A DNA stretch of 64,000 bases, from assembly GCA_965215505.1 (NCBI GenBank), contig OZ244065.1, forward strand, positions 32,001 through 96,000, written 5' to 3'. The notes under the pieces are model-generated. The model searched no databases, had not been told where the DNA came from, and saw nothing but the letters and a program-made list of their open reading frames with translations. This document shows, piece after piece, positions 646 to 43,846 of this stretch. The position numbers and the translations under genes are program-made. Numbering within the stretch: the stretch's first letter is position 1; every line of letters starts with the position of its first letter. This DNA is from Capsulimonadaceae bacterium. GTDB lineage: Bacteria > Armatimonadota > Armatimonadia > Armatimonadales > Capsulimonadaceae.

Positions 646-662
646 TCCCTCGCCGACAGGAC

Positions 663-691
663 TTGACAATCCCTTCCGGTTTGGGTATTAT
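663..691 (+). promoter_or_regulatory. sigma70-type promoter upstream of tRNA-Glu
   Basis: TTGACA (663-668), 17-bp spacer, TATTAT (686-691). Confidence 0.75.
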
Positions 692-740
692 ACCCCCCGT
701 GACGTAAAAGGGTTCCGCCCGCTGCGTTCCGCTAGTTTCA

Positions 741-812
741 GGCCCCATCGTTTAACGGTTAGGACAGCGCCCTCTCACGGCGTAAATCGCAGTTCGATTC
801 TGCGTGGGGTCA
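741..812 (+). tRNA. tRNA-Glu (anticodon CTC), CCA not encoded
   Basis: Cloverleaf: acceptor GGCCCCA/TGGGGTC, anticodon arm GCGCC-CTCTCAC-GGCGT, T arm CGCAG-TTCGATT-CTGCG, discriminator A. Confidence 0.95.
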
Positions 813-902
813 GTCATATGTCTACTATAATCTCCCGCAGGCTCCCGTGCCGTGGGAGATTTCTCTTTTGATGCTCCGTCTCACGCACCTGGAACTGCCC
901 CC

Positions 903-26327: not shown

Positions 26328-26894
26328 TCAGTCACGTCTCGGTGCGAAGGTTCTAAAGTCAGTCTTGTGTAAACTCGCGCCTTTAAAGATCGCCCCTGCC
26401 ATTTCTCCACCTAAAAAGATCGCGTGGTCCAGCTTGGAACCTGAAAAATCTGCCCCAGTTAGATCTGCTCGTGCGATTGTCGAGTACGCCAACTCAGCCC
26501 CAGTCAAATCCGCCCCAGCGAGGTTGACTCCATCCATGACGAAGTTACCAGTCAGATCGGCACCGCGCAGGTTTGCGTGGGAGAGATCAGCACTGTCAAG
26601 CTCCGCACCACTGAGATTGGCCCCAGCCAGGTTCGCGCCCGAGAGGTCCGCGAACGAGAGCTTCGTTGCCTGAAGGTCGGCTCCGGCGAGAGCGGCCCCA
26701 GCTAGCGGTGCGCCACGCAGGTCATGGAGGTCGTAGACGTCATCCACTTCCGCAAATCCCTCGATCAGGGGCGTCCACGGCTGCCGCGTCTGCAAGGCTG
26801 TGACTATTTTTTTGAGGAGGGCCTGACCATGGGCTGTCTGCCATCGCCCTTGGAGCCTCTGTCGCTGCTGGTAGTGCCAGTCTTCATCTTCCAT
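26328..26894 (-). CDS. Pentapeptide repeat protein directly downstream of the toxin (candidate immunity)
   Basis: A(D/N)LxG repeats (ADLSGANLAGANLSGAELDSADLSHANLRGADL); 12-bp gap after the effector; AT-richer DNA. Confidence 0.88.
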   Translation of the reverse strand: MEDEDWHYQQRQRLQGRWQTAHGQALLKKIVTALQTRQPWTPLIEGFAEVDDVYDLHDLRGAPLAGAALAGADLQATKLSFADLSGANLAGANLSGAELDSADLSHANLRGADLTGNFVMDGVNLAGADLTGAELAYSTIARADLTGADFSGSKLDHAIFLGGEMAGAIFKGASLHKTDFRTFAPRRD

Positions 26895-26906: not shown

Positions 26907-29555
26907 TTACGATCCTGGCGGCCAAACGTGGAAAGGTGGGAAGCTTCCATGGCCAATCTTGCTTAGGAAGCCCTTGAGACGGCTCTGTATGGCTTGGACC
27001 TCGGAATAGCGCTGCTGGAGTACGGCCTGCCCGCGCTCCGTGAGGCTCGCTGGGGGGTTACGCATCTCCGACTCAAGTGCCTCCCTTACGTTATTCAAAG
27101 CTCGGCTGGCGCGCTGCAAGTCCCCGATGTGGCTGAATGGGGTGCCGTCATCTCTGCGTGCTACGACATTACCCTGCGCCTCTTGCCGTGCGGCCCAGTA
27201 GTGATTGTGGCCGGCCTCGCTGTTTGCTTCTCCGACAGGGTCCGCTTTGACATTCTCCAGTGTCTCGATCGCCCTGGCTGCTCGACTGCTCAGGCCGGTC
27301 CCCTGTTCAGGAGGGGGCGTTGGCCCAGCCTCTGTGCCTTCCTCTGCCTCATCGGGGGTAGCGGCTTCCTCTTGTCCGCCTTCGCCGCCCGGACTGTTGC
27401 CCGTCTGCACTACGGGATCGCTCCCGCCCGACTCACTCTCGCCCCCGCCGCCTTGCTCTGGCGGTGCCTCACCCGGCATCCCGCCGTCCCGCTCGCCGAG
27501 TTGCACGAGAGGGTCCCCCTGTGGGGCACTTTCAGCCGCATCACCCGGAGGCGGGGTATCTTTGCCACCCAGACCCTCGGGGCCAGCCCCACCGCCGCCA
27601 GGTTCGTCGGGACCACCTTCTGGGCCGCCGCTAGGTTCGTCGGCCGGAGCGCCGCCTTCGGGTCCGCCGCCGCCTTCGGGTCCGCCCGCAGGCCCTTCGG
27701 GGGGAGCACCGCCACTCCCAGGCCCTTCGGGCGGGGCACCGCCCTCGGGAGTGCGGGTGATGTACCTGCTCGGCACGTCCCCCTTGATCAGCACTTCCCG
27801 GTCGCGCACCGAATTCGCCCGGTCCTGCTGCGCCCGGTCCAGCCGCTCCTGGTTCTTGGGCGTGGGGTTGGCGTCGTAGCGCGCCTGGGCGTCGCTAATG
27901 TAGCCGTCGTGGGCGTTCAGCACGTCCGCGTGGTCGAGGATCTCCACGCCGTCCACTTTGCCGTCGGCGATGTCCTGGCGCAGGCCGCCCCGGTCCAGGG
28001 TGAGCAGGTCGCCGCCGTAGTCTTTGGAGGTGCCGAGCTGGTCGCTGAACGAGGTGTAGGGGCTGTCGCTCTTGGCCGGCTCCGCGCCGCGTACATGCTG
28101 CTGGACGGTGGCCTGGCCGTCGGGGTTGGCCGGGTGCAGGTCGCCGTTCTCGTCGAGGTAGGACTTGCGGGAGCCGGGCTTGCGGCCCTCGGGCGACTCC
28201 GGGGCGCGGTCCTTGCGGTAGATCTTGTCTTCCGGCTTCGTCTGTTCCTCGGGCGGCGTCTCTGCGGGCGCGGCCTCGCCGTCCCCGGCATTCTCCGGTT
28301 CTTCGGGCGGGGCCTCGCCCTCCGAGCCGCCGGGCGAGTCGCCGATCGGCTTTGTCGGGTCGGCCTCGGCGGCAGTCTCGGGGGCGTCGGCGGGGCGTTC
28401 CCCGCCCCCGCCGCCTTCCTCCGCGCCGCCGCCTTTCGTGGCCCCTCCGCTCTCGCCCGTCTCCCCCTCACCCTGCGCTCCGGTGCGCTCCGAAGGCGCG
28501 TTTGCGTCTGAAGGCGAAGCCCCCTCGGCAGCAGGCGCGCGGACTGGCTCAGGCACGGGGGCGGGTTCCGGCGTCGGCCCGGCGGCCGAGTTCGAGTTTC
28601 CCTCTGACCCGCCGCCTGTCCCCTCCGTACCGCCGCTGCCTTCCCCGCTCCCGCCACTGCCCCCCTCATTGGAACCGCCGCCGTCCGAACCGCCTTTGCC
28701 CTCGCCGGCACCGGCTTCCGACTTGCCGCCGTGGTCGAGCAGCGGCAGGAAGGAGGCGACGGTGTTGGCGTCGTCCCGGATCCTTCCCTCGGGGAGCAGG
28801 CTGATGCCCCGGCTGATGGCCTGGCTGAAGAGGACCCCTTTGCCCAATGCCATCGCGCCCGCCTTGAGGCCCATCAGCAGGGTGCCGCCCGCCGCCGCGA
28901 CCGGAATGGCGAGGATCGCGCCGCCGACGAGGGCGGCATAGCCGCCGTACTCGCCGATCTTGTTGAAGAGCGCCTTTTCGGGGTCGTCGCCCTCGCCGGC
29001 CTTGCCGATGGTGTCGCCGCCGATGATGACGCTGGCGCAGCCGTGCCCGATGATGAAGCCGCAGCTCCCCCTGTCGCCGACGCGGGCGGCGTGCTGGCGG
29101 GCCGCGCCCAGCCGGACGCTGACGCTGCCCTGGGTGACGTGTTCCAGGGAGTCGGGCGCGCTGTGCTTGTGCTTATTGCAGGCGACCTTGCTGCCGATGT
29201 GGGCGGCGACGTGGCGCTCGGGTCCGACATGGATGGAGGTTTCCCCGGTGAGGATCGGGCCTTCATCGTCCCCCAGGTGTTCCTGCCCCCGGTCGGCGGC
29301 GCTGTTGGAGACGGCGGCCCCGGTGGCCGCCGCCGTGCCGCCGACGACGAGCGTGGCCCCGACGTAGATGCCCAGGAGGGCGATGGGAGTCGCCGTGCCC
29401 GCCGACAGCACTTCCAGGGCGCCGGAGGCGGCCACGAGGGCGCAGCCGATGCCGATGCCGATGACCGCCCCGATGCCCATGCCGATGCGGCGGTAGGTCT
29501 GGGCCTCGCTGTGTTTTACCTGGTCGCTGACGCGAGCCGCTTGGGCGTTTGGCAT
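26907..29555 (-). CDS. prePAAR-TMD-PAAR-TMD polymorphic toxin with ART-like and Ntox28-like domains
   Basis: AARVSDQVKHS prePAAR; TM hairpin; PAAR (AAHIGSKVACNKH...AARVGDRGSCG...GCASVIIG); second TM region; G/E/P linkers; YR..TSFS..RDREVLIKG (27753-28226); AARQEAQGNVVARRDDGTPFSHI (26907-27293). Confidence 0.88.
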   Translation of the reverse strand: MPNAQAARVSDQVKHSEAQTYRRIGMGIGAVIGIGIGCALVAASGALEVLSAGTATPIALLGIYVGATLVVGGTAAATGAAVSNSAADRGQEHLGDDEGPILTGETSIHVGPERHVAAHIGSKVACNKHKHSAPDSLEHVTQGSVSVRLGAARQHAARVGDRGSCGFIIGHGCASVIIGGDTIGKAGEGDDPEKALFNKIGEYGGYAALVGGAILAIPVAAAGGTLLMGLKAGAMALGKGVLFSQAISRGISLLPEGRIRDDANTVASFLPLLDHGGKSEAGAGEGKGGSDGGGSNEGGSGGSGEGSGGTEGTGGGSEGNSNSAAGPTPEPAPVPEPVRAPAAEGASPSDANAPSERTGAQGEGETGESGGATKGGGAEEGGGGGERPADAPETAAEADPTKPIGDSPGGSEGEAPPEEPENAGDGEAAPAETPPEEQTKPEDKIYRKDRAPESPEGRKPGSRKSYLDENGDLHPANPDGQATVQQHVRGAEPAKSDSPYTSFSDQLGTSKDYGGDLLTLDRGGLRQDIADGKVDGVEILDHADVLNAHDGYISDAQARYDANPTPKNQERLDRAQQDRANSVRDREVLIKGDVPSRYITRTPEGGAPPEGPGSGGAPPEGPAGGPEGGGGPEGGAPADEPSGGPEGGPDEPGGGGAGPEGLGGKDTPPPGDAAESAPQGDPLVQLGERDGGMPGEAPPEQGGGGESESGGSDPVVQTGNSPGGEGGQEEAATPDEAEEGTEAGPTPPPEQGTGLSSRAARAIETLENVKADPVGEANSEAGHNHYWAARQEAQGNVVARRDDGTPFSHIGDLQRASRALNNVREALESEMRNPPASLTERGQAVLQQRYSEVQAIQSRLKGFLSKIGHGSFPPFHVWPPGS

Positions 29556-29575: not shown

Positions 29576-30340
29576 TCAGCCGGCGGCGCTCGGGGGCACC
29601 CCAAGCCGCGCCAGCGCGCGGCGGGCCTCCTCAGACACGGCCCGGTCTCCCGAGCGTGCATACTGCTCCAGTCGGCGGCGGCTGTCCGGGCCGGGCAGAA
29701 AGCCCAGGGCCTCGGCGACGTTCGAGAGCGGGTCGGGCCGGCGCGGGTCGCGCGGGGCGGCGACGATCCGCGCCAGCAGCGGGCGGACGGCCTCCCCCTC
29801 CCACCTGGCGAGCGGCGGCAGGAGCTGGGAGGCGAGGTAAACGTCGCCCCGCGCGAAAGCCCGCTCCAGGGCCTCCCGCACGTCCGGGGCGAGTTCCGGG
29901 AAGTCCATCCGCAGCAGGGCGCGCTTCAGCCTGGACTCGAAGCCGCAGGGGCCGTAGAGCGCCAGGATCTTCCGGAAGACGCGCACGCGGTCCTCGCGGT
30001 GGTCCACCGACGAAAGCCCGAACAGGTAGACGGCCTCCGCCAGCTCATCGTAGACGTTGTCATAGTCGTAGATGCGGTGCGGCGCGAACTCCATCTGCCG
30101 GTCAACGCGCGCGTCCACGAACTCCTCGACTTTGGACAGCCCGGCCGGGTCGCCCCAGGCGGTCAGGACGAGGGCGGCCTGATAGGCGAGGTACAAGTCT
30201 CCGTCACCGAGCAGGGCGCGCACTGGGCCGATGCGTTCTGCGGGGACGGGGTCCAGGAGCTGGACTTCGTCCAGGCCGACGACCCGGCCGTCCTCGTCCT
30301 GGTAGAGTAGGCGCTGGATGTCTTCCGAATAGGCAGTCAT
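29576..30340 (-). CDS. Helical (HEAT-like) protein, candidate immunity for the upstream toxin domain
   Basis: AYQAALVLTAWG, PHRIYDYDNVYDELA, EALGFL...EEARRALARL; lies between the chaperone and the effector. Confidence 0.65.
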   Translation of the reverse strand: MTAYSEDIQRLLYQDEDGRVVGLDEVQLLDPVPAERIGPVRALLGDGDLYLAYQAALVLTAWGDPAGLSKVEEFVDARVDRQMEFAPHRIYDYDNVYDELAEAVYLFGLSSVDHREDRVRVFRKILALYGPCGFESRLKRALLRMDFPELAPDVREALERAFARGDVYLASQLLPPLARWEGEAVRPLLARIVAAPRDPRRPDPLSNVAEALGFLPGPDSRRRLEQYARSGDRAVSEEARRALARLGVPPSAAG

Positions 30341-30786
30341 GTGTTGAGTTTCATCGTGATGAGCGCCTGCTCCAAGACGGGGCGGTGCTTCGCGTACAGC
30401 GTGTCCAGGGCGGTGCCGGTGACGCTGACGACGAGGTCGCCGTGGCGGAAGTGCGTCTGCTGCTGGCGCATCAGGGCGTCCTCAGAGCGCCAGGTGAAGT
30501 CCACCTGCTCGGCGGGCAGGTTGTCTACCGTCGTGGGGCGGCGCGACAGCAGCCGGAACTCCGGCAGCATCCCCTCGGCGGCCTGGATCTGCCGCGTGAC
30601 GTAGGCGGGGAGCGTATCGCCAGCGACCACCGGCGCGCGGGTGATGACCAGGCTGAATTCGCCCTTCTCGTCGGGGTCCACCGGGTCCAGCGGTCCGCCC
30701 GCCGGGACGACGAAGGCGTTGACGGTCCGGTCCACGGTCCGGGCGGGAATGACGAAGCGGACCTCGTTGGTATAATAGGTTTTCAT
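30337..30786 (-). CDS. DUF1795/DcrB-like Eag effector chaperone
   Basis: YYTNEVRFVIP..VDRTVNAF, FSLVITRA, YVTRQI, VDFTW, MRQQQ; lies between vgrG and the prePAAR effector. Confidence 0.85.
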   Translation of the reverse strand: MKTYYTNEVRFVIPARTVDRTVNAFVVPAGGPLDPVDPDEKGEFSLVITRAPVVAGDTLPAYVTRQIQAAEGMLPEFRLLSRRPTTVDNLPAEQVDFTWRSEDALMRQQQTHFRHGDLVVSVTGTALDTLYAKHRPVLEQALITMKLNT

Positions 30787-32775: not shown

Positions 32776-35460
32776 CTAGCGCGTCGTCGCCAGGTGCCCG
32801 ACGTTCGACGTCAGGGAAAAGCTCTGTGCCGCTCGTGGGTAGGCGTGCTGCGCGCCGTAAGTCACGGTGTAATCGTGTGTCCCGCTGGGGAAGCGGTAGG
32901 AGTGGTTCAGAATCACCTCCTCGCTCACGGTGGTCCCTGGTGCCAGCGTGATGAACTGGCGCGGGCCGGGGTCGGCGGGGCGCTGGGACCGATGCCCGGT
33001 GAACGGGAGGAGCTGGCCGTCCGCCCGGATCTGGAACACGTCATCCCCGATCTTGCCGCTCGCGCACGCGCTGATCTTGTCGAGGAACACGGGATGTCCC
33101 GAGACGTTGGCGAACGTCAGCACGGCATGAACGTCTTTGCCCTGGGGCGTGACGGCAAGCCCGACGGTCGCCGGGATGGTCACGAGCGTCGGGGCCAGCG
33201 TCGTGGTCTGGCCGCTCTCGCCACTGGAACGGCCCCCCACCTTGCTCTGAACGCGGTAGTGATAGAGGCCGCCTGGAGTAACGGTCGTGTCTGAAAAAAA
33301 GTTGTTGCGCGTTGACTGGGGCCATTTCCCCCCGCCGGAACCGCCGCTGCGGTACAGGAGGTACACGGCGCCGTTCGGCACGCTGTCCCAATGCACGTTG
33401 ATCTGGGTCGGCCCGGCCGGCTGGGCCACCAGCCCCGTCGGGGTGGGGGGCGGCAGAACGGGCACCTTGACCGCCGCGACGGGGGGCAGAGGCGGCGTCG
33501 GCGTCGGCGGCCTGTCGCTCGTCGTCGGCGGCGATGTCGGAGCCGGGCGGGGCGTGACGGGTGGCTGTGGCGGCACAATCACCGGGGGGGTCACGGCGGC
33601 CGCCGTCCTGCCGGATGACGCCGCTGACCCTGATGCCCCCGCGCTCGTGGCCGCCGCTGCCGCCTGGGCCTGCTTCCTCTTGTCCGCCTCGTCTTGCCTT
33701 GACTTCGCCCGCGCCTCGGCCCTCGCCGCCGCCGCGATCTGCTCCGGAGTCAGCGTCAGCGTCTCGGGGAACGAGAGCGCATCGGGGAAGGTGAAGGCCC
33801 CCTTCTGGCGTCTCACGGGCAGGGACACGCCGGAGTCATTGCTCTTCTGCTGCAAGGCGGTCGCGCTCAGGATGAGAGTTTCGGTCTTCCCCTGCGGGAC
33901 CTGATCCGTGACATCCAGCTTGACGGGTTCATAGGCGTTGTGGCGGTCCCGGTAGACGGGGCAGATGCGCGTGTGCTGTTGGCCGTCGAGCAGATAGTTG
34001 ACCGTCAGGAACTTGATGTCCTTTCCCCGCAGGCCGCCGAGGTCGCCGATGTTTATCAGCACCAGCGCGCCCGGCGACCGGGCGACTTTGATCGTCTGCT
34101 GGACCTTCCATTCGTCGCGCAGGCCGGCGACTTTGGTGATGTTCAGGTAGGCGGCGTCGGACATCGCGGGGAAGGTGTAGCTGCTGAACTCCGGCTCTTT
34201 GCCCGCCTTAGGCGCGAGGCTGAGCTGGTAGCGCTGGTGGGCGCGGCCCGGCCAGCTCCAGCCGATGGGCCAGCGGTATCCATAAAGGCGGGCCGGCCCC
34301 TTGAAGACGAGCTGGCTGCCGTTGAAGGACCCGACGATCGGCTGCTGACCGGCGAGCGGCGTGTTGTCCTCGTCCAGAAGTGTCATCGTCGGGTCCAGGT
34401 CCCGCAGGTCCACGCCGTCCGGGAGCTGCCCGGCCTCCAGGCCTTCGAAGGCGGGCGTCACCACGATCACCGGATGCTTTTCGGAGGGGACGCCCCAGAC
34501 CAGCCAGAATAGGAACAGCAGGATGCCGAGCAGGGCCACCCAGTCGCGCCCCATGCGGAGCCAGGGGACGTAGCGGACGCGGACCGGGCGGGCCAGGGCG
34601 AGCGGGGTGCTGACGCTGCCGGCGGCTTGGGCCGCGCCGCGCACGGTGGCGTAGTAGGAGCCGCGGTGGGCGGGGGGCGGCAGCAGGCACTGCCAGACGC
34701 CCGGAGTCCGCGCCGTGAGGGCCTGCTGGATGTCGCCGACGGTTTCGGCGTCCCGTTCCAGGGCGTCCTTGGTCGGCGCGCGCAGGATGGTCATCCCGAC
34801 GGTGGGGGGCAAAAAACTCTTGTTGGCGAGCCGGACGGCGAAGCGCGCCTCGCGCCGCCACGGGCGGGTGACGACGAAGGGGGGGACTGCGGTGATCTGG
34901 AGGTCGCTTTCGGTCGGCAGTCCGACCCAGCGCAGGGGTAGGTCCTGGACGATCTCGCCGGGGTCGCCGGTGCGGCGCGGGTCGAAGCAGGTCAGGACGA
35001 AGCCGAAGGCCTGCGTCTTCCGCTTCTCGCCGGTAGGGGGCGGCACGAAGACCACCTCGAACGATGCTTCCTCGCCCGGCTGGAGCAGGATGCCGCCCTC
35101 GCGCTGCGGGGTGCCGCCGAGTGGCGGGCGGCGGATGTAGAAGGCCGGGTTCAGGTCGGTCACGGTCAGGTCGAAACGGTACGCTATCGGCTCGGGGTTG
35201 CCCACATGGATGGTTTCGACCTTGCCGGGCCAGACCAGGTCGCGGTCGGTAATGCGCGACTGCTTCGAGTCCGGCGTCTCCTCGGCGTCCGCCGAAGCCA
35301 GCGGCTTGCCCGGCGTGAAGGACACCGAGGCCTCCCCGCCGGATTCCATGTCCTCGTCCGCCCCGCCGCCCCCGCCGCCGGAACCGTAGCCGCCCGCAAA
35401 GCCTGAGAGGCCCGACAGACCGGGGATGAAGCCCAGGAAACTTAGAAATCGTCCAAACAT
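32776..35460 (-). CDS. Large bitopic membrane protein (Ig-like N-terminus, TM, Pro-rich linker, FN3 and C-terminal Ig-like domain)
   Basis: TM WVALLGILLFLFWLVWG; PTPTGLVAQPAGPTQINVHWDSV..YLLYRS..FSDTTVTPGGLYHYRVQS FN3. Confidence 0.8.
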   Translation of the reverse strand: MFGRFLSFLGFIPGLSGLSGFAGGYGSGGGGGGADEDMESGGEASVSFTPGKPLASADAEETPDSKQSRITDRDLVWPGKVETIHVGNPEPIAYRFDLTVTDLNPAFYIRRPPLGGTPQREGGILLQPGEEASFEVVFVPPPTGEKRKTQAFGFVLTCFDPRRTGDPGEIVQDLPLRWVGLPTESDLQITAVPPFVVTRPWRREARFAVRLANKSFLPPTVGMTILRAPTKDALERDAETVGDIQQALTARTPGVWQCLLPPPAHRGSYYATVRGAAQAAGSVSTPLALARPVRVRYVPWLRMGRDWVALLGILLFLFWLVWGVPSEKHPVIVVTPAFEGLEAGQLPDGVDLRDLDPTMTLLDEDNTPLAGQQPIVGSFNGSQLVFKGPARLYGYRWPIGWSWPGRAHQRYQLSLAPKAGKEPEFSSYTFPAMSDAAYLNITKVAGLRDEWKVQQTIKVARSPGALVLINIGDLGGLRGKDIKFLTVNYLLDGQQHTRICPVYRDRHNAYEPVKLDVTDQVPQGKTETLILSATALQQKSNDSGVSLPVRRQKGAFTFPDALSFPETLTLTPEQIAAAARAEARAKSRQDEADKRKQAQAAAAATSAGASGSAASSGRTAAAVTPPVIVPPQPPVTPRPAPTSPPTTSDRPPTPTPPLPPVAAVKVPVLPPPTPTGLVAQPAGPTQINVHWDSVPNGAVYLLYRSGGSGGGKWPQSTRNNFFSDTTVTPGGLYHYRVQSKVGGRSSGESGQTTTLAPTLVTIPATVGLAVTPQGKDVHAVLTFANVSGHPVFLDKISACASGKIGDDVFQIRADGQLLPFTGHRSQRPADPGPRQFITLAPGTTVSEEVILNHSYRFPSGTHDYTVTYGAQHAYPRAAQSFSLTSNVGHLATTR

Positions 35461-35514: not shown

Positions 35515-35979
35515 TCAATGCGCCGACGGTCGTTTGACGTGGCTCGGGTTCGGTCGGTTCAAATGGAATTCGACGGTATACGGGATCGTGGAGTGCGGCC
35601 ACGGGTTGATCAGCCGCGTCTCGGTGTGGCCCTGCCACTGGAAGATCAGCCACAGCCGCTCCCCCGGAAACCGCGAGATCGGCGTCAGCCCCTTCGGGTC
35701 TATGGACAGCTTCCCCTGATCGCTCTCCGGCACCGCGCGGTCGCCGATCCCGCCTGTGGAAATAGAGGCGGGGACGAGGGCCTGCGTGCCGTCCGAGTAG
35801 ACCTCGATGGCTTGCAGGTTCACCTGCACGCGCTGGGCCGATGGGGCCGGCTTGACAGGATGCCGCTTGTGGGACAGAGCGCCCAGGACAACGCCGACCA
35901 GAGCCGCCCCGAGAAAAACGGCGAGCCACTTTGCGAAGAAGCGCGCGGGCCAACATGTGGACGCGAAGAGGGAAGCCAT
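35515..35979 (-). CDS. Hypothetical single-TM protein in the injection-system operon
   Basis: N-terminal TM (WLAVFLGAALVGVVLGAL) followed by a beta-rich domain; co-oriented. Confidence 0.6.
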   Translation of the reverse strand: MASLFASTCWPARFFAKWLAVFLGAALVGVVLGALSHKRHPVKPAPSAQRVQVNLQAIEVYSDGTQALVPASISTGGIGDRAVPESDQGKLSIDPKGLTPISRFPGERLWLIFQWQGHTETRLINPWPHSTIPYTVEFHLNRPNPSHVKRPSAH

Positions 35980-36054: not shown

Positions 36055-37167
36055 CTATTTGCGCCACATGAACCCGGTGCCGCTGCGCCGGGGCGTCTCG
36101 ACCGCCGCCGGGTCCTCCTCCCGGCTCGCCGCCGGCGCGGCGCGCGGGTCGCGTGCCGCCATCACGGTCTCGTGGTCGAGCTGGCGGCGCTCCGGGGCCG
36201 GGGCGGCGGCCTCCAGGGCGGCCAGGAGGGGCGGATAAAGCTGGAGCAGCCGGTCCAGGCACTCGCGGGCCATCAGGAAGGCCTGGCCCATGGTCCACTC
36301 GGCCGTCTCCAAATAGTTCAGTGTGTCTTCCAAATAATCCACCGCCTCCTGGTAGATCCGCAGGCCGGGCGAGGGCAGGGCCAGAAGCTGGGCGCGCTGT
36401 GCGGCCAGGATGCCCCCGACGATGCCCATGTAGGCGCGCGGGGAGGCGTTCCCGTCCGCGACACCTGCCAGCGGTCCGAGTGACCCGGCCAGGGCGGTCG
36501 CGGCGGCGTAGCGCTGGACGGCCCCCGACGAGTGCTTGACCAGCAGGTCCAAAGCCTGCCGTGCGAGCGACCGCAGCTCCTGCTGAGAGCGCCACTGGCC
36601 GGCGTGGCTGGAAAGGAACATCGTCTCGGGGATAAAAGACCGGTCCAGGCTGAGGCCGGTCGTCGTCTTCTCGAACTGCGCGATCTGGACCCAGTCCACC
36701 GTGTCGTCGCCGTTGTCCGCGGCCAGACGGTAGGAGGCACGGATACCCCGGCACCCGAGCAGGCCGGTATCCACGGAGGAATGCAGGTGCGGCTCGGGGG
36801 CGCGCTCGGTAAGCGACGCGCCGACGTAGAGCGGCACGATGTTCGCCCGCGCCTCGACGGTGCCGCGCAGGGCGAGAGCCGGGTCGTCCGGAATTTCGAT
36901 GATCTGCCCCTGCCGCCCGACGGCCAGGCAGCCGCGCACGGCGACCGAGTACAGCCGGTCGCCCTCCGGACTGGGGCGGCTGACGGCGTCGTCGGCCAGA
37001 TGCAGCAGGCCCGCGACGCGCCCGCGCTGGAGGGTCCACCGCACCAGCTCCTCCAGGTAGAACGTCTCCTGCTTGAACTGTCCGGCCTGCATCAAGCGGA
37101 CGCTGTCCCAGTCCACGGAGACCAGATCGAACTTACGCATCAGGGGGAACCTCTTGAGAAATGTCAC
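36055..37167 (-). CDS. TssK-like baseplate subunit (divergent)
   Basis: VDWDSVRLMQAGQFKQET resembles the TssK N-terminal W..G....HF.Q motif; GCLAVGRQGQIIEI; DRSFIPETM; position after the TssF/G-like genes. Confidence 0.65.
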   Translation of the reverse strand: MTFLKRFPLMRKFDLVSVDWDSVRLMQAGQFKQETFYLEELVRWTLQRGRVAGLLHLADDAVSRPSPEGDRLYSVAVRGCLAVGRQGQIIEIPDDPALALRGTVEARANIVPLYVGASLTERAPEPHLHSSVDTGLLGCRGIRASYRLAADNGDDTVDWVQIAQFEKTTTGLSLDRSFIPETMFLSSHAGQWRSQQELRSLARQALDLLVKHSSGAVQRYAAATALAGSLGPLAGVADGNASPRAYMGIVGGILAAQRAQLLALPSPGLRIYQEAVDYLEDTLNYLETAEWTMGQAFLMARECLDRLLQLYPPLLAALEAAAPAPERRQLDHETVMAARDPRAAPAASREEDPAAVETPRRSGTGFMWRK

Positions 37168-37213: not shown

Positions 37214-38827
37214 TCAGAGCGTGATCGGGTCGCCCGCCGGCCCGCCCCCGGCCGCCTTCGCCCCGAGCCGCGCCCCGGACTGGAACTCGTGCTGGAGGTA
37301 GGAGGGGCGGTCCAGGCGGGCCGCCGACTCGCGCCACAAGACCTCGACGCGGCAGCAGACCGGCAGGAACAGGCGCAGCAGCAGGGCCAGCGTCGCGCGC
37401 GCTTTCTCCGCGCCCTCGTCCTCATCCGACAGCGGCATTTCCAGGGTCACCCCAGGGTACTGGAGCAGGGCGGCCCCGCCCAGTACCGCCGTGCTGCCGA
37501 GCTGCGCCAGGAGTGTAGCGGGCCGGCTGAAGGCGGGCGCATAGCGCCGGGGGTGGACGACGACATCTGGGTGGATCAGCCGCCGCGCGGCGGTCTCGAA
37601 CAGGACGAACGGGTCGGCGGCCTCGCGCCGCCAGGCGACCAGCGACCAGAGCTGCGTCCGCTCCGTCTCGTCGAGCGCGCTCAGGTCCAGCGCGGCGTCG
37701 TCCGGGCCGCCCACGCCGAGAACGCCGCCCCCGTCTGCCCACTCTTCCAGGCGCGAGGCCAGCAGGGTGCGGGCGTTGCGCCCGCCGGTCACGGACAGGA
37801 ACCAGCCGTCCAGCCGGCCCGTCCCCGCCGCCCTCTGGTCGGAGATGCGGCCGTGTATCCAGCCGATCCCGGCGAGCGAATCAATAACGGCGGTCGCCAG
37901 CAGCGCCTCGGTCGTGACGACCTCCATCAGCTCGCGGACGATGAGCGCGCGCTCCCGCTCCGTCTCATGGGAGAGGGCCGTCAGCAGGGCGCGCAGGAGC
38001 GCGCGCTGCCCGTCCGCCTCGGCGGGGGTCAGCTCGGTCCACATGCCGTCTTCCGCCGCCATCTCGGGCAGCGCGCCGAACAGCAGCAATGCCCAGCGTT
38101 TCAGTGTCTCCGTGGCGGCGGGGCGGTCGCGGTCTTCCAGGCCTTCGATGCCGCGCGGCGGCAGCTTGTCGGCCATCAGGGGCCAGGCCAGCCGGCAGGC
38201 GGCGCGCAGGTCCGGGTCGGCGGCCCGCCGCGTCGCCGTCGCGATCAGGCCCGGTCGGCGGGCGGGGTCGGACTCGAATAAGACCCCGAGAACGTCGTCG
38301 GCCCCGACCTCCATCATGACGCGCTCTTCCGGCGTCGGCGTCCGCATCAGCTCGGGGTAGGAGGCGCAGACCTGCTGGGCCAGGTCTTCCAGTGGGGACT
38401 GCGGCCGGGCAGGCGGCGGGGCGCCCGGCAGCCCCGCCAGCAGGGGCGGCACGAAATGGGCCAGCCGACCCACGGTGCGGGTCACGCGCCGCTCCCCCCC
38501 GGCCTCGCCTTCCGGCACGAAATAATCCACGGTGTCCGCGCGCACGCTGACGGCGAGGCGCGGGCGGACCTCGGCCGGGATGACGTAGTGGACCGTCAGG
38601 CGCTCACTGAGCGGGTCATGGGAGGGGCCGGGCGGGTCCTGCGCGCGGACCTCGGGGTCGGCGAAGTGGCCGAGTTCGGGCAGCATCCGCAGGTTCTCTT
38701 CGGGGATGCCCAGGGCGTGAAGCGTCCTCCAAGCTTCCAGCAGGTAGCTCGGCCAGTTCAGCCCACTGAGCTGCGGGAATACGACCGTCCGTGCCGCCTT
38801 GTCCGGCGTCTCTTCGGCCTGGGTCAT
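37214..38827 (-). CDS. TssG-like baseplate wedge subunit (divergent, extended)
   Basis: ATG overlaps the stop of the upstream gene; C-terminal LGSTAVLGG...LLRLFLPVCCRVEV...ARLG pattern typical of TssG. Confidence 0.55.
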   Translation of the reverse strand: MTQAEETPDKAARTVVFPQLSGLNWPSYLLEAWRTLHALGIPEENLRMLPELGHFADPEVRAQDPPGPSHDPLSERLTVHYVIPAEVRPRLAVSVRADTVDYFVPEGEAGGERRVTRTVGRLAHFVPPLLAGLPGAPPPARPQSPLEDLAQQVCASYPELMRTPTPEERVMMEVGADDVLGVLFESDPARRPGLIATATRRAADPDLRAACRLAWPLMADKLPPRGIEGLEDRDRPAATETLKRWALLLFGALPEMAAEDGMWTELTPAEADGQRALLRALLTALSHETERERALIVRELMEVVTTEALLATAVIDSLAGIGWIHGRISDQRAAGTGRLDGWFLSVTGGRNARTLLASRLEEWADGGGVLGVGGPDDAALDLSALDETERTQLWSLVAWRREAADPFVLFETAARRLIHPDVVVHPRRYAPAFSRPATLLAQLGSTAVLGGAALLQYPGVTLEMPLSDEDEGAEKARATLALLLRLFLPVCCRVEVLWRESAARLDRPSYLQHEFQSGARLGAKAAGGGPAGDPITL

Positions 38828-40470
38828 GCCGCCACCCGGCCTTCGATGCGGAACGTGGAAAGCACGAAATACTGCGACAAGATGGAGGCGAGATAGTTCG
38901 CCATGTCCGTCAGCAGGAAGTCCGGGACCTCGGGAGGCGCGGCCCGCTCGAAGGTGATCCGCAGGCTCTGGACCAGCGGCACAGAGTCCGGGGAAGGTAC
39001 GCCTTCTCCTTCGAAGGTGGACTCGCGCGCAAGCACGGAGGGCCAGAGGTAGGAGCGCCAGTGGATGCCGCCCGTCTCGGGGTCGTTGACGATCTCGCGC
39101 ACGGCGGATCGGAATCGGAGCATCTCGCCCAGGTCGCCCCGCCGCTGCCGGATGATCTCCCACAGGTCCCCCTCGGTCAGCAGCGGCGGGCGCAGGACGC
39201 TGTGATACCAGGCCGTCCGCGCCCACTCGGCGCGGTCGGACGGCCCGCCCACCGTGGCCCCGCCCAGGGCGAGGTAAGGGATGCTGAACCGCAGCGGCGC
39301 TTTCTCCAGCGAGGTCGGCGTGTCCAGCATCCCCATCCGGCCCCGGCCCCAGGAGCCGTAATAGATTTTGACCTGCGTGACGCCCGCCTGCACCTGCGGG
39401 AACTGCACCTGTACGTCCGGCTCGGTCGCCGCCGGGTCCTGGCTCGGCAGGCGGACGAGCGAGGAGGGCACGTCCAGCCCGTCGTGCCGGACCGTGGCGG
39501 CGAAGATGCCGGGAACGCCGGTCATCCGCAGGGCGTGTTCCTGGCCGACGTGCGGAAAGGGGGGATAAAAGATGTTGTCCGACAGGCCCGTCTGGACCAC
39601 CGGGACCGCATTCAGACTGACCCAGGCGGGGCCGGAACGGCGCGCACCCAGCGCGCGCAGGGCGGCTGCGGCGTGTCCCTGGGGGGAGGGAACGACTCCC
39701 ACGAACCGGAAGCCCGACTCCAGGCCCCGGTCGAGTCGTTCCGAGGCCAGCAGCGGGTGGGGCGGCGCGTTGCCCGCGCCCATCCCCAGCCGGACCATTT
39801 TGCGCCCGTAAGGGTGAAAAGGCGGCAGCCACAGGTCGAGCTGGCGCTGGTTCATGCGCGCCGTCTGCATCTCGCGCTCGAAGGCCATGTAGCCGTCGTA
39901 GCGCGTGAAGGACGCCGGGCGGAACCCGGCACCGGGAGTCAGGACCCACCAGGAGGCGCGTGCGAGCGCGGCCAGGGCTTCCTCGGGGACGCCGAGGAAT
40001 GCGAGCTGGCCGCGCTCCAGGGTGATCTCGACCGGCTCGGTTCCGGGCTGGTCCACGTCAATGACGGCCAGACAGTTGCCCCCGGACCACTGCACGGCCG
40101 CATCGCGCAGGGCCGTCGGCTGAATCCAGCCCGCGCCGCAGGCCATCCAAGGGGAGCCGGCGGAGTCGGTGAACGTCAGGCCCTCCGTGACGTCGGTCGC
40201 ACGGGCGGGGGGGCGCACGGGGACGGCCAGAGTTTGTGCCGGGAACTTCCAGTCACCGAGCGGAAAAAACTGTTCCTCCAGGTGGGCGATGGACGACCGT
40301 TCGGCCTGAACGTAGTGTTCCTGGACTGCCCCCTTCCAGCCGGCGAGCATGGCGAGGAAGGGGGCGTAGTGTGTCTCGTAGTCTGCCACGACACGGTGGC
40401 GCATCTCGCGCGGGATGCGCGCGAGGATGTCGCGGACGTTGGGCGGGAGTTCGGTTTCGTCGTCAGCCAT
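38824..40470 (-). CDS. TssF-like baseplate wedge subunit (divergent)
   Basis: PAQTLAV, LNAVPVVQ (cf. TssF LNCxPxxN), ALGGA..GG, RPPLLTEGDL; 548 aa; follows the tube gene. Confidence 0.6.
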   Translation of the reverse strand: MADDETELPPNVRDILARIPREMRHRVVADYETHYAPFLAMLAGWKGAVQEHYVQAERSSIAHLEEQFFPLGDWKFPAQTLAVPVRPPARATDVTEGLTFTDSAGSPWMACGAGWIQPTALRDAAVQWSGGNCLAVIDVDQPGTEPVEITLERGQLAFLGVPEEALAALARASWWVLTPGAGFRPASFTRYDGYMAFEREMQTARMNQRQLDLWLPPFHPYGRKMVRLGMGAGNAPPHPLLASERLDRGLESGFRFVGVVPSPQGHAAAALRALGARRSGPAWVSLNAVPVVQTGLSDNIFYPPFPHVGQEHALRMTGVPGIFAATVRHDGLDVPSSLVRLPSQDPAATEPDVQVQFPQVQAGVTQVKIYYGSWGRGRMGMLDTPTSLEKAPLRFSIPYLALGGATVGGPSDRAEWARTAWYHSVLRPPLLTEGDLWEIIRQRRGDLGEMLRFRSAVREIVNDPETGGIHWRSYLWPSVLARESTFEGEGVPSPDSVPLVQSLRITFERAAPPEVPDFLLTDMANYLASILSQYFVLSTFRIEGRVAA

Positions 40471-40573: not shown

Positions 40574-41017
40574 TTACGCTGCGGGCGCTTCCGGCTCGCC
40601 GGCCTGCACCGAAAGGATGTTGTCGCCGGTGTAGTCCACGTTGTTCTGGATCATCACGCCCCGGATGACCACCTCGACGAAGTTGCCCTGGTCGGTGCCG
40701 TTCGTGGAACCCTCCGGGTACTCCTTCTCGATGTAGGAATGGACGTAGGACTTTTGCAATGTCCACATCTTCTTGACCGTGTGAGAGCGGTCCAGAGTCT
40801 GAAGCTCGACCGTCTTGAATCGCTTCGGCCCCTGCGGCGCGAGCGCCCACAGCGCGATCATGGTGTCATGGTCCAGGGGGAGCGTGACGGTGAACTGCAT
40901 CACCGGGACCTGGACCGCCTCGCGGACCTTCTTGTCTTCATCGAGGTCGTGGAGTATCTCCACCCTGGCGTCGAAGACGCGGTTGATCTTGGTTCCTTGA
41001 ATGGTTAGATTCGGCAT
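40574..41017 (-). CDS. Hcp/TssD-like tube protein
   Basis: 147 aa, beta-rich; IALWAL...KTVELQTLDR...KKMWTLQKSYVHSYIE resembles TssD W..K.G.I.F...AY...Y.E; AAAGGA RBS; directly after the sheath-like gene. Confidence 0.65.
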   Translation of the reverse strand: MPNLTIQGTKINRVFDARVEILHDLDEDKKVREAVQVPVMQFTVTLPLDHDTMIALWALAPQGPKRFKTVELQTLDRSHTVKKMWTLQKSYVHSYIEKEYPEGSTNGTDQGNFVEVVIRGVMIQNNVDYTGDNILSVQAGEPEAPAA

Positions 41018-41120
41018 CTCGAACTGTCCTTTCATCGGGAATGCACGGGGCACCACTGCGGCGCGAGGTGCTGCGGTCACCGGGGCGGCTCTCCCGCCCC
41101 GGTCGAGTCAGACCATGTTG

Positions 41121-43670
41121 TTAGAAGCTGATTCCGAACTCGTCTACCAGTCCCTGCTCGAAGTAGAGGACTATCTTGAAGTTGTTTCCCCCTTCGCGCT
41201 GCACCTTAAACTCCTGTCCGGTCTTGAGTGCGCTCGGGAACGAGTTGACGAGCTTCTCGGGGTCGTACCACTTGGTCCACTTCAGGATGTAGTTCAGGTG
41301 GTCCGACAGCATCCCGACCGCCTTCTCGTTGTCCTCGGGCATGGAGCCGCCGTAGCCCAGCTCCCAGGCCGCGCGCAGGAGCCGCTTGAGGTAGACCTCC
41401 TGGCGGAACAAGTGCAGGTGCCGGTAGGACTGCTCGCCATCCTCCTTGTGGAGCCGGCGCAGTGTGCGCGGCACCGAGAGGAACGGCGACCGGCCGGAGA
41501 CGTGGGTGAAGGCCAGAAACGGCATGCTGCTGCTCAGAAGCTCGCTCATCAGGCCGTCGTTCAGGAAGTGGTCGGTGGGCAGGTCGGTCTCGCCAAGGTA
41601 GGGGTTGATGGACAGGTCAATGCCGACGCCGGGCAGGTCGGACCGCATGGAGGTCACTTCCTTCTTGGCGCGCTGGAGCTTCCGGCGCAGATAGTCCGGC
41701 ACGTCGTTCGCCATCAGCCGCCCCGCCGCGACGTAGCAGGACCGGACGGTCAGCTCGGGCACGTCCACGCCGACCTCGATCCCGCCCTCGGCCGTCTTGC
41801 CGGTGACCAGCTTGCCGTCGGGCGGCATGATCGTGAAGTCGGGCAGGCACAGGATGCCGCAGTCGCCCGACTCGCGCTCCACCACGGCGTCTATGGCGTA
41901 GGCGTCGTTGAGGTTCTGCAAATACTCGCGCCGCGCCCGCCCCGCCTGGACGCGCTCCTCGGGCGAGAAGAGCACCTGGAAGCCGTACTGGTAGCCCCAA
42001 TCCATCAGCGGCAGCATCTCGTCTACATAGGTCGTCTTGCCGTAAGTGTCGGCGTCCGGCATGACCGCGTCCTGGGCGGCACGGATCGACTCCAGGAGGG
42101 GGTCATCCAGCATGATCGAGTTCTGCTTGCGCTTCGCGGGCCGCTTTTTCTTGAACTCGGCGACGTTCGGCACGATCACGAACGAGATGGCGTCGCGGAA
42201 CTGGTTGTTGGCCTGGGCGTTGGCCCCTTCGAAGAACCGCTTCAGCTCGTCGGGCCGCGACAGGAAGAGGTGGGGCAGGTCTTCGTTCGCGACGATCAGC
42301 TCCGGCTTCATGCTGTCCGGCAGGCGCACGTCGGAGGGGAATTCGTTGAACAGCAGATAGACGCCCATGATCGTCTCGAACAGCGGCGTGACCGTCTGGA
42401 GGAACGACTCGACGGCATTGCTGTAGACCCCGAGGAACATGTCGTGGTAGTGTTCCACGTCCCGGATGTCCGGGTTCAGCAGGGCCAGCTCTTTGGGGTT
42501 CTGCAAGACGGTCGCGACGAGGTTGCCCATGAGCGGGGCGATCATGCCCCGGTCAATCATCTTGTCCATGAATTTGCCGACCGCGATGGGGAACCGCTTC
42601 TCGTGGGGGACCAGGGCGATGTCCTGGCCGGCGACCAGCTTGCCCTGCTCGCGGATCTTGTCCAGCGCGGTGTCCAGGGTCCGCACCGTGATGGCCGTGC
42701 CCGTGGAGCCGCCCTCGGACTTGACCAGTTCGCCGCCCTCCTCGCCCTTGCCTTCCAGCAGCTTCTTTTCGCCCTCCAAGAGCTTCTTGCCCTTCTTGCC
42801 GTCTGCGGCGGGGGCTTCCAGCGCGGGCAGGGTGGGCATGGAGCGCGGCGAGGCGATCAGCGACCGGTCCTTGCCGAACTCGATCTGGTACACGTTGGGG
42901 TCGATCGGGCCGCCGCCGGGCGACTGGCGTTTCAGCTCGTTTGCGGTCTGTTCCAGCCCGTAGACGACGGTGGGCAGGACGCGGACGGTGTCTTCCAAGG
43001 CACCCTGGAAGTCGTCGGCGGCCACCTGATAGGCTTCGAGGGCACGGGCGGTGTCCTTGGAGGCGGGGTTGCGCTTGACTTCCAGCATCAGGCGGTCGTT
43101 CTTGACCTGGACGTCCTCGGCGATCTTCCGCATCAAGGTCCGCTGGTTTTTTGGCTTGAAGGCGAACAGGGAGGCGTCCACGTCCACGCGGAAGGTGGAG
43201 ACGTCCTGCCGGACCCGCTTCTTGATCAGGTCGCGCAGGCAGCGGATGTACGGGTGGTCGGCGCTGACGCGGATCTTCTTCCAGCCCGGCCCACCTTCCA
43301 GCGAGAACTCGATCTGCGGCGGGCCGGGCGCTTCCTCAACGGGGGACGCTTCTTCTCCTTCCGCGGCACCCGCCTGGGTCATCTGCGGGCCGCGGACGCG
43401 GTAGTAGAAGCCGGGCTGGAACTTGTCGAGGAACTCGGTGAAGGAGGTGACCGTCAGGTTCTCGCGCACCAGCGACAGGAACTGCTCCTCCGACATCTCC
43501 TCGACGCGGGAGAGCAGGCTGCCCAGCGAGGGGGTGTACTCCCGGTCGCGCTCCAGGGCCTCGGGGTCGAGGTACTCGTCGAGGTTGACCTTGGCGAAAA
43601 GGATCGCGCGGTTGGTCTTCCCCAACATGCTGCGGTTCGCTTCCATGATCGTCTCATTGGTGATTGGCAC
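41121..43670 (-). CDS. Contractile sheath-like protein (TssC-like C-terminal half, long N-terminal extension), 849 aa
   Basis: First gene of the structural operon, AAGGAG RBS; C-terminal FVIVPNV, ILCLPDFTI, SCYVAAGRLMA, PRTL resemble sheath motifs; position before tube and baseplate. Confidence 0.55.
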   Translation of the reverse strand: MPITNETIMEANRSMLGKTNRAILFAKVNLDEYLDPEALERDREYTPSLGSLLSRVEEMSEEQFLSLVRENLTVTSFTEFLDKFQPGFYYRVRGPQMTQAGAAEGEEASPVEEAPGPPQIEFSLEGGPGWKKIRVSADHPYIRCLRDLIKKRVRQDVSTFRVDVDASLFAFKPKNQRTLMRKIAEDVQVKNDRLMLEVKRNPASKDTARALEAYQVAADDFQGALEDTVRVLPTVVYGLEQTANELKRQSPGGGPIDPNVYQIEFGKDRSLIASPRSMPTLPALEAPAADGKKGKKLLEGEKKLLEGKGEEGGELVKSEGGSTGTAITVRTLDTALDKIREQGKLVAGQDIALVPHEKRFPIAVGKFMDKMIDRGMIAPLMGNLVATVLQNPKELALLNPDIRDVEHYHDMFLGVYSNAVESFLQTVTPLFETIMGVYLLFNEFPSDVRLPDSMKPELIVANEDLPHLFLSRPDELKRFFEGANAQANNQFRDAISFVIVPNVAEFKKKRPAKRKQNSIMLDDPLLESIRAAQDAVMPDADTYGKTTYVDEMLPLMDWGYQYGFQVLFSPEERVQAGRARREYLQNLNDAYAIDAVVERESGDCGILCLPDFTIMPPDGKLVTGKTAEGGIEVGVDVPELTVRSCYVAAGRLMANDVPDYLRRKLQRAKKEVTSMRSDLPGVGIDLSINPYLGETDLPTDHFLNDGLMSELLSSSMPFLAFTHVSGRSPFLSVPRTLRRLHKEDGEQSYRHLHLFRQEVYLKRLLRAAWELGYGGSMPEDNEKAVGMLSDHLNYILKWTKWYDPEKLVNSFPSALKTGQEFKVQREGGNNFKIVLYFEQGLVDEFGISF

Positions 43671-43710
43671 GGTCTCGTCTCCTTTGAGTTATCGCGGCGG
43701 GGCAAAAGCG

Positions 43711-43736
43711 GAATGGAAAGGCTGAATTGAAAGGCT
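43711..43736 (-). promoter_or_regulatory. 13-bp direct repeat upstream of the sheath-like gene
   Basis: Minus strand AGCCTTTCAATTC AGCCTTTCCATTC followed by a partial CGCTTTTGC. Confidence 0.45.
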
Positions 43737-43846
43737 AAACAGAAGTGCGCGAACAAAAAGAGTGTCGGGCCACCCTCACGACAATCATTCCCGTTTCCGG
43801 GCCGCCTGACACCTAACGAACGGGCGGATTTCGCGGCTGGTTTGAG

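Follow-up and report, generated by a model that had tools for sequence, protein, structure and literature searches.

The candidate sheath gene and its surroundings

The stretch of DNA examined in this study (the window) covers 64,000 nucleotides of contig OZ244065.1 from a Capsulimonadaceae bacterium of the phylum Armatimonadota, whose genome is available as a single contig of 6.18 Mb that is 96% complete. Its minus strand carries an open reading frame (ORF) of 849 codons, at positions 41121..43670, whose product is a candidate contractile sheath protein. Since the G+C content of the window is approximately 67%, long ORFs are present on both strands. Nonetheless, the ORF given in a preliminary description of this DNA is a real gene. 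Its codon composition is strongly coding, with G+C fractions at the first, second and third codon positions (GC1/2/3) of 0.64/0.38/0.92, and its frame exhibits the highest GC3 in each 150-nt bin along the whole gene. The GTG start codon at 43670 lies 8 nt downstream of an AAGGAG ribosome site at 43679-43684, and homologues share this start point in the alignment, where they begin with MPIT or VPIT. Both peptides quoted in that description are present in the minus-strand product, where LTVTSFTEFLDKFQP corresponds to residues 72-86 and KKGKKLLEGEKKLLEGKGEEGG to residues 291-312. A plus-strand ORF of 909 amino acids (aa) at 41001..43730 overlaps the gene, and was set aside as the usual shadow of a coding region with high G+C content.

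The sheath gene is part of an array of genes on the same strand that extends from g227 through a pentapeptide-repeat ORF, as outlined by frame-wise GC3 (Table 1). All twelve genes of this cluster are present in single copy in the genome, and the flanks are unrelated to the cluster, as they include a gene for a GH38 mannosidase on the opposite strand and a kdp operon.

Table 1. Segments of the sheath protein and features of the surrounding gene cluster, with positions as in the window.
Feature	Position	Strand	Basis and remarks
Residues 1-135, conserved N-terminal segment	43266..43670	-	pLDDT ~80-95 outside loop
Residues 140-250, helical insertion	42921..43253	-	DSSP, full-length and fragment models
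Residues 253-329, predicted disordered linker	42684..42914	-	pLDDT <50 in both models; gap-rich columns
Residues 332-443, helices aligning with VipB/TssC N-terminal helices	42342..42677	-	VIA alignment with 5mxn_A
Residues 445-849, TssC-like alpha/beta sheath core	41121..42338	-	VipB/TssC alignment; pLDDT mostly 80-95
Intergenic leader, 176 nt	43671..43846	-	Hairpin 43777-43758 and AAGGAG 43684-43679; read from sequence
g227, 227 aa	43847..44530	-	GC3 0.87; C-terminal hydrophobic helix 199-223 (hydropathy scan)
g168, candidate Hcp/TssD-like tube, 147 aa	40574..41017	-	Feature search, HMM chain, complex model
g548, possible baseplate wedge (Baseplate_J/TssF-like), lead only	38824..40470	-	Atlas feature search
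g537	37214..38827	-	Frame-wise GC3; ATG overlaps g548 stop (ATGA); no family match
g370	36055..37167	-	No family match
g154, small, N-terminal hydrophobic helix 12-38	35515..35979	-	Hydropathy; no family match
g894, one transmembrane helix 303-327, candidate envelope anchor	32776..35460	-	Hydropathy, sequence
VgrG-like spike, 647 aa	30802..32745	-	Phage_GPD E 3.6e-9, Phage_base_V E 2.5e-10, above Pfam cut-offs
DUF1795/DcrB protein, candidate Eag-type effector chaperone	30337..30786	-	PF08786 E 3.9e-23
254-aa protein, weak HEAT-repeat match	29576..30340	-	PF13646 E 2.8e-5, below cut-off
882-aa effector, C-terminal Ntox28	26907..29555	-	Ntox28 E 1.1e-34
Pentapeptide-repeat ORF, 188 aa, candidate immunity protein	26328..26894	-	Directly 3' of effector gene; repeats visible

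Predicted fold of the 849-residue protein

An AlphaFold2 model was built on a family alignment of 40 homologues (mean predicted local distance difference test score (pLDDT) 73.9; predicted template modelling score 0.74), in which 128 residues fall below a pLDDT of 50. These homologues align end to end and vary in length only at residues 96-115 and ~253-329, and the same two regions make up the low-confidence parts of the model. A Foldseek search of the PDB returns four matches at E <= 0.001, all of which are entries for the VipA/VipB sheath of Vibrio cholerae's type VI secretion system (T6SS), with E values of 3.5e-4 to 7.4e-4, TM-scores to target of 0.48-0.51 and alignments that fall on the TssC-sized chain (430-473 residues). 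Next in the list are sheaths of the M. xanthus T6SS, a Streptomyces contractile injection system (CIS), the A. vinelandii T6SS, PVC and AFP. A search of the viral library BFVD returns phage tail sheaths as well.

When the Foldseek candidates are re-aligned (VIA), ranks 1-28 are occupied entirely by sheath chains (Z 12.5-19.6, 282-385 residues aligned, root-mean-square deviation (rmsd) 3.6-6.1). The next row, at rank 29, is a pair of unrelated helices with Z 8.4. The VipB/TssC chains among these reach Z 16.2-18.2 on the predicted model, with 308-385 residues aligned. The predicted model thus contains the conserved two-domain core of the contractile sheath superfamily (gp18/CIS/T6SS) and, as judged by Foldseek and VIA, the three-dimensional fold of TssC. 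The central guess of the preliminary description was that of a single-chain sheath without a separate TssB, and it holds in that comparison of the AlphaFold monomer with TssBC/gp18-type sheaths reveals a predicted fold related to contractile sheaths. We consider it likely that this Armatimonadota bacterium has a chromosomally encoded, T6SS-like injection apparatus of highly divergent type, and that the 849-aa protein is its contractile sheath subunit.

One could argue that a prediction of medium confidence has produced a spurious fold match and that the protein is unrelated to sheaths, given the mean pLDDT of the model, its share of residues below 50 and the absence of sequence-level support. 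We judge this explanation to be very improbable, however, because it is the confidently predicted regions (pLDDT 80-95 over residues 420-850 and 20-95) that give the match, because 28 independent sheath entries precede the gap to Z 8.4, and because the genomic context, with tube and VgrG genes, agrees independently.

Anatomy of the chain

Single-chain phage and CIS sheaths align by VIA over nearly the entire model, from residues 14-19 to residues 837-842. The VipB/TssC chains align from residue 337 or 401 to residue 841 (Z 16.2-17.7 over 401..841), and 5mxn_A is matched over model residues 337..839 to chain residues 19..474 (Z 17.7, rmsd 6.1, 385 residues). Because the single-chain sheaths align from residues 14-19 onwards, residues ~16-135 are best viewed as part of the sheath core. 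Thus, the likeness to sheaths is not confined to the C-terminal half of the protein, as had been supposed, and the long N-terminal extension described earlier must be redrawn. Residues ~16-135 of that extension belong to the core, but the additional helical and K/E/G-rich material does exist as an internal insertion of ~190 residues. According to the model, what had appeared to be an extension is composed of a core segment, a hairpin of helices and a linker with the K/E/G tract that is predicted to be disordered.

The N-terminal segment is predicted to form a helix (residues 5-15) and strands at residues 21-24, 87-93, 119-123 and 131-134, with a variable acidic loop at residues 96-115. Its invariant residues include N12, M15, T19, R21, F77, F80, K83, P86, Y90 and R91. 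The insertion that follows is predicted to form long antiparallel helices (residues 173-200, 205-226 and 228-249) and then the disordered linker, whose length varies across the family and which contains the K/E/G tract (residues 291-312; 42735-42800). Within the DNA for this linker, a 9-nt unit occurs twice at 42783-42800, and a KKLLEG unit is duplicated in the linker of the window protein. Distant homologues have linker motifs in common (alignment columns ~395-470), namely (A/L)LE(G/S)G, as well as G-x-E-(I/L)-V with a subsequent AL-S..LA-R. These may be short linear binding motifs.

The relation of TssB to the N-terminus of phage sheaths is established. By analogy, residues ~16-135 would hold the place that TssB has in two-chain sheaths, and in the model the insertion loops out at the position that corresponds to the junction between the C-terminus of TssB and the N-terminus of TssC in canonical sheaths. 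When folded alone, fragment 1-445 reaches a pLDDT of 67.6 and cannot take its in-context conformation in isolation. A wide VIA search with this fragment gave generic helical-hairpin matches only (Z up to 8.4), and Foldseek gave nothing at E <= 0.001.

A candidate tube protein encoded next to the sheath

The gene g168 was originally called as the ORF 40574-41080, and its start was moved by alignment to M22. The protein has no direct match in Pfam and no sequence match in the PDB, and a profile search for remote relatives yields a closed family of 58 that is devoid of any tube-family Pfam domain, with the weakest of the 58 matches carrying the unrelated domain PF02706. A protein-language-model feature search of the Atlas assigns 29 of the 30 clusters nearest to g168 to the TssD set of PF17642, the top score being 0.96, where the nearest neighbours in feature space are TssD clusters from Bacteroidota. 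A second path runs through a tube-like family (F1) encoded beside the Bacillota relatives of the sheath, which are described below. The hidden Markov model (HMM) of F1 matches g168 with an E value of 3.7e-5 among 12 window proteins, with an hhalign probability of 60%. F1 itself matches PF17642 TssD in 18 of its 24 members (best E 1.6e-5), and its profile matches the PDB entry 6bdc_A, which is titled Hcp1, with an E value of 0.0015.

A complex model of four copies of g168 passed the mark used for such models, with a median of 0.43 versus 0.00 for the best control. This mark is reached by 20/30 solved homo-pairs and by 1/23 single chains. Separate runs share at least 54% of contacts, the partner pLDDT is 71-75, and in the modelled interface the strand formed by residues 112-118 of one copy pairs with the strand formed by residues 39-44 of the next. 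It may be that this pass reflects likeness to solved Hcp rings. With these features in mind, we consider g168 a candidate tube protein of the Hcp/TssD type.

Other genes of the cluster

Searches of the cluster with Pfam, NCBIfam and PHROGs matched only the VgrG, DUF1795/DcrB, HEAT and Ntox28 entries of Table 1. The best NCBIfam rows for the VgrG-like spike are TssI/VgrG, under cut-off, and PHROGs return baseplate-hub matches for it and nothing else. A passage in PMC7773334 identifies Eag chaperones as DUF1795 proteins and presents the prePAAR motif AARxxDxxxH as the mark of those T6SS effectors that contain transmembrane domains and have these proteins as their chaperones. The N-terminus of the 882-aa effector, AARVSDQVKH, fits the motif as given in that passage, and the protein also carries N-terminal hydrophobic helices and long G/E/P-rich linkers. 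Insofar as the passage defines the module, the cluster therefore contains the T6SS combination of a spike, a PAAR-type effector and a chaperone. A switch in GC3 at 27350-27800 was considered as a possible frameshift in the effector gene, and this was dropped because low-complexity coding rich in G, P and E explains the switch. Downstream of the effector gene and the pentapeptide-repeat ORF, two adjacent paralogous ORFs of 172 and 147 aa are present on the minus strand (24541-25420). They share the repeat-rich patterns YxWR..PFTG..Y...PDGTL and ...EAGRLR...AEYGFRVAE.QWD, and may be orphan immunity-type genes.

Three proteins of the cluster, g227, g154 and g894, carry single hydrophobic helices. 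Given that the one hydrophobic helix of g227 is C-terminal, this protein is probably tail-anchored in the membrane; it has no match in Pfam, NCBIfam or PHROGs. The g894 protein also contains a linker rich in Pro, Thr and Ala and a stretch with weak resemblance to FN3 (fn3 E 0.22). No cluster protein has a Pfam match to TssJLM, and the models for TssM and TssJ were not searched genome-wide. When g548 was compared by features with the Atlas, 10 of its 30 hits belonged to a set with 23% PF04865 Baseplate_J members (score 0.94), at a recognition of 2168 that is under the 2300 mark, and g548 has no match in Pfam and no sequence match in the PDB. PDB searches with the family profiles of g168, g537 and g370 returned nothing meaningful.

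The leader that separates g227 from the sheath gene is lower in G+C content and contains a terminator-like hairpin (43777-43758) followed by TTTGTT. The hairpin is not significant, as four terminator-like sites were found versus 3.1 expected in shuffles. It could still set g227 apart from a highly expressed sheath-tube unit.

Genome content and distribution in Armatimonadota

The HMMs for VipB (PF05943), VipA, TssD, TssF and TssK have no match anywhere in the genome. The absence of tssB and ClpV that was remarked upon in the preliminary description extends from the locus to the whole 6.18 Mb: TssB (PF05591) has no match at E <= 1, and the best two rows for ClpV (TIGR03345), at 435.5 and 430 bits versus a cut-off of 884.95, are ClpB/ClpA-like genes far from the cluster. 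The genome's only match to Phage_sheath_1 (PF04984) is the gene at C1:1033785 (E 3.1e-18), which lies ~17 kb from a gp25-like gene at C1:1050432 (E 1.2e-24). This region (C1:1033785-1050704) is a separate prophage tail or extracellular CIS (eCIS) locus of the same genome.

A word-indexed search recovered 71 homologues of the sheath protein, with full-length representatives of ~820-920 aa and a few partial ones of 540-681 aa. They carry no precomputed Pfam domain, and where a name is given, which is the case for only a few, it is 'hypothetical protein', in Armatimonadota-type records. A scan of species-representative genomes identified 22 sheath loci, all labelled Armatimonadota except two, and distributed among Armatimonadales, Capsulimonadaceae, Chthonomonadales, Abditibacteriales and HR15. 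The exceptions are an 'uncultured bacterium' and a metagenome-assembled genome labelled Janthinobacterium. The latter, a contig labelled Janthinobacterium lividum, carries an entire Armatimonadota-type cluster whose sheath is 83% identical to that of the window, and probably reflects mis-binning of the contig, not gene transfer.

The tube gene follows the sheath gene in 21 of the 22 loci and VgrG is found nearby in 19, which bears out the expectation that homologues of the protein would co-occur with tube and VgrG genes. By tblastn, g227 is located upstream of the sheath in 18/22 loci and g548 is found in 14/22, with most misses of neighbouring genes occurring at contig ends. The family is nevertheless a patchy accessory system: it was found in 11 of 301 sampled Armatimonadota genomes and 4 of 159 genera, but in 7 of the 12 genomes of the window's own genus when the window's genome is included. 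Canonical TssC was found in 0/301 of the sampled genomes, and therefore the cluster may be the only contact-dependent weapon of its type in Armatimonadota.

Relatives in Bacillota

An exhaustive profile search with the sheath family returned 255 cluster representatives at E <= 0.001. Many of these are 650-800 aa in length and match in three separate stretches, at the N-terminus, around 400-500 and in the C-terminal core. Neither a Pfam domain nor an informative name is attached to any of the ten representatives that were checked. Starting from one representative, a further search collected 163 proteins, of which the named ones are from Paenibacillus, Clostridium, Lacrimispora, Lachnospiraceae and other Bacillota. 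These relatives are ~720 aa in length and are labelled 'transcriptional regulator' or hypothetical. Alignment of the Armatimonadota and Bacillota families by hhalign gives a probability of 99.95% (E 5e-38) over 665 columns (19-852 versus 10-718), and takes in the N-terminal segment. At least 509 metagenome stretches encode Bacillota-type relatives. The family was not found in plasmid records, and 0 of 71 pattern matches in IMG/VR viral contigs were confirmed.

In 15 metagenome loci, the neighbours of the Bacillota family include VWA, TssD-like, DnaJ, FHA, PP2C, TPR and Hsp70-like proteins. The preliminary description mentioned poorly annotated proteins of ~800 aa in Bacillota, near phage-baseplate genes. 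Such relatives do exist, at ~720 aa, but their neighbours in these loci are not recognisable phage-baseplate genes. The conserved cluster comprises ~11 genes (for example, L051:8275-22072), and includes genes for a VWA protein, the sheath relative, TssD-like proteins (one or two) and a DnaJ-domain protein. Also present are a ~200-aa protein, FHA, PP2C and PP2C+TPR proteins, proteins of ~426 and ~231 aa, and a protein of ~880 aa with a weak DnaK-like stretch; some loci have a second sheath paralogue. When HMMs of the Bacillota neighbour families were compared with the window proteins, matches were obtained only for the sheath (E 9.7e-27), the tube (at the E value noted above) and a doubtful pair of F7 and g537 (E 0.005). 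The Bacillota cluster may represent an undescribed contractile system of monoderm bacteria.

The existence of full-length relatives in clusters of DnaJ, Hsp70-like, FHA, PP2C, VWA and TPR genes that lack a recognisable spike could also mean that the sheath fold has been co-opted for a role other than injection, such as an intracellular scaffold or a regulated cell-death device. For the Armatimonadota system we regard this as quite unlikely, since the sheath-tube pair travels with VgrG in most of the loci counted above, and a single same-strand array with chaperone, effector and candidate immunity genes makes sense only for injection.

Merits of the T6SS-like assignment

Several observations weigh against the classification of the window protein as a T6SS-like sheath, and readers should keep these in mind. 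Pfam, NCBIfam and PHROG models have no match to the protein even at E <= 10, which holds specifically for the PF05943 (TssC/VipB) HMM at this threshold, and the PF04984 (Phage_sheath_1) HMM likewise has no match. A PDB sequence search with the family profile returned nothing relevant, and hhalign comparison of this profile with the E. coli O157 proteins gave probabilities of 0.6% for TssC and 0.15% for TssB, of which the latter is uninformative because even TssC escapes detection by the same comparison. Without any sequence-level link, the sheath assignment rests on predicted structure and context. Moreover, the fold alone cannot assign the protein to the T6SS class, because the VIA Z scores of T6SS, CIS and phage sheaths are within ~2 units of each other. 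Since the N-terminal half alone gave no match to TssB/VipA, the term 'TssB-TssC fusion' is a reading of the predicted topology, with which it is consistent, and not a demonstrated or proven homology. Within the cluster, none of the genes was recognised as gp25/TssE-like, and the only above-cut-off gp25 match of the genome is located ~1 Mb away, beside the separate canonical sheath gene. Finally, Pfam and NCBIfam recognised no VgrG or baseplate gene on one Bacillota-type metagenome locus, and because there are Bacillota clusters without a recognisable VgrG, a spike does not accompany this family of sheaths in every case.

Some of these points invite a different view, in which the sheath belongs to a prophage tail or to a particle that resembles a phage tail and is released (eCIS or tailocin), rather than to a cell-anchored, T6SS-like machine. 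The top rows of the VIA list include the Streptomyces CIS (19.6), a cyanophage (19.5) and sheaths of the PVC/AFP type (17.8-17.9), which are level with T6SS sheaths. Phages and eCIS as a rule have sheaths of a single chain, no TssJLM is recognisable in the cluster, and ClpV is not found above cut-off. However, PHROGs yield nothing for the sheath and only the baseplate-hub matches for VgrG, and Pfam and PHROGs recognise no genes for tail fibre, tape measure, terminator, capsid or lysis functions in the cluster. The g168 tube resembles the T6SS-type TssD, the VgrG, DUF1795 chaperone and prePAAR effector with transmembrane domains form a module of T6SS type as the cited passage describes it, and membrane helices are present in three cluster proteins. 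T6SS sheaths also occupy the top five places in the Foldseek list, helices 337-400 align with the N-terminus of VipB, and the related Bacillota family has no confirmed member among the IMG/VR pattern matches. We therefore consider a released particle or prophage tail to be an unlikely explanation, and favour a cell-anchored, T6SS-like apparatus.

Proposed mechanism

In the mechanism that we propose for such an apparatus, a single chain of 849 residues would supply the whole sheath protomer, with residues ~16-135 giving the N-terminal elements of the core and residues ~332-849 giving the TssC-like body. Protomers would polymerise around a tube made of the 147-aa g168 protein. The baseplate would be built from proteins of the cluster, among which g548, g537 and g370 are candidate parts, and it might be held in the envelope by the candidate anchors g227, g154 and g894. 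Contraction would then expel the VgrG spike carrying the Eag-chaperoned prePAAR/Ntox28 effector.

Because no ClpV is present, a general unfoldase would be needed for sheath recycling. Canonical sheaths present a ClpV-binding helix at the location where the hairpin and linker sit here, and ClpB carries out sheath recycling in the Francisella system. The exposed hairpin and linker are thus a candidate handle for disassembly or anchoring, possibly used by one of the two housekeeping ClpB-like ATPases. The Hsp70 and DnaJ genes of the Bacillota sister clusters would fit the idea of a disassembly handle.

Comparison with known systems

Surveys of T6SS and CIS find loci by using HMMs for sheath, tube and baseplate proteins. 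The cluster described herein and the larger Bacillota family are invisible to such models, and therefore a branch of contractile machines is probably missing from the catalogues. In open-access papers and preprints, we found no description of a T6SS or CIS in Armatimonadota or of a fused T6SS sheath, and the open-access literature on contractile systems of Gram-positive bacteria or Paenibacillus likewise yielded nothing on the Bacillota family. By sequence, the window protein falls outside TssC, TssB and Phage_sheath_1, and by predicted fold and context it belongs with the contractile sheath superfamily.

Canonical T6SS sheaths are formed by two chains, TssB and TssC. The TssB/TssC proteins of V. 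cholerae (VipA/VipB), M. xanthus and A. vinelandii are the best Foldseek matches of the window protein, with the N-terminal helices of VipB included in the alignment, and the context is similar as well, in that it includes a TssD-like tube, VgrG and an effector of the Eag/prePAAR kind as characterised in the passage cited above. In contrast, the window protein is one chain of 849 aa, whereas the TssB and TssC ORFs of E. coli O157 Sakai encode 166 and 463 aa. A separate small subunit is not apparent, as the upstream g227 is predicted to be membrane-anchored and has no family match, and the sheath protein's own N-terminal 135 residues occupy the core. The ~190-residue insertion, in which a long hairpin of helices precedes a K/E/G linker of 77 residues predicted to be disordered, is also unlike the T6SS sheath, as is a genome that lacks ClpV above cut-off and any match to PF05943 or PF05591. 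A natural single-chain sheath with TssC-type N-terminal helices bears on the origin of the two-chain T6SS sheath from one-chain phage sheaths, and the lack of ClpV in such a system prompts one to ask how its sheath is recycled.

The sheaths of the Streptomyces CIS (9gtp), PVC (9qgp), an AFP-like particle (6j0n) and cyanophage A-1(L) (8kee) resemble the window protein in being single polypeptides with the N-terminal segment in the core, and they align at VIA Z 17.8-19.6 over model residues 14-19..837-842. Unlike the window protein, they match the Phage_sheath Pfam models. The helical and disordered insertion, and the genes for a T6SS-type tube, spike and effector, also set the window system apart from them.

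With the T6SS-iii of Bacteroidota there is a likeness in the PF17642 TssD affinity of both the tube candidate and the Bacillota tube family. T6SS-iii retains separate TssB and TssC proteins, ClpV and recognisable TssE/F/G/K, but TssB, TssC, ClpV and recognisable TssE/F/G/K are not detectable with the window cluster. A further counterpart is the Bacillota family of ~720 aa, which provides a full-length homologue with conserved N-terminal motifs that is likewise followed by one or two TssD-like genes. It differs in its shorter insertion and in its DnaJ, Hsp70-like, FHA, PP2C, TPR and VWA neighbours, with no recognisable VgrG in the loci examined.

These comparisons leave us finely balanced, leaning slightly to the negative, on the broader proposal that a previously unrecognised class of T6SS-like machines spans Armatimonadota and Bacillota. 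Such a class would be defined by a single-chain sheath, a TssD-like tube, and baseplate and envelope parts without detectable similarity to catalogued families, and would include a sister lineage, widespread among monoderm Bacillota, in which Hsp70/DnaJ and FHA/PP2C modules accompany the sheath-tube pair in place of ClpV and a recognisable spike. If this proposal is true, the family could mark either the ancestral state of the T6SS sheath, before it was split, or a separate event in which a phage tail was domesticated.

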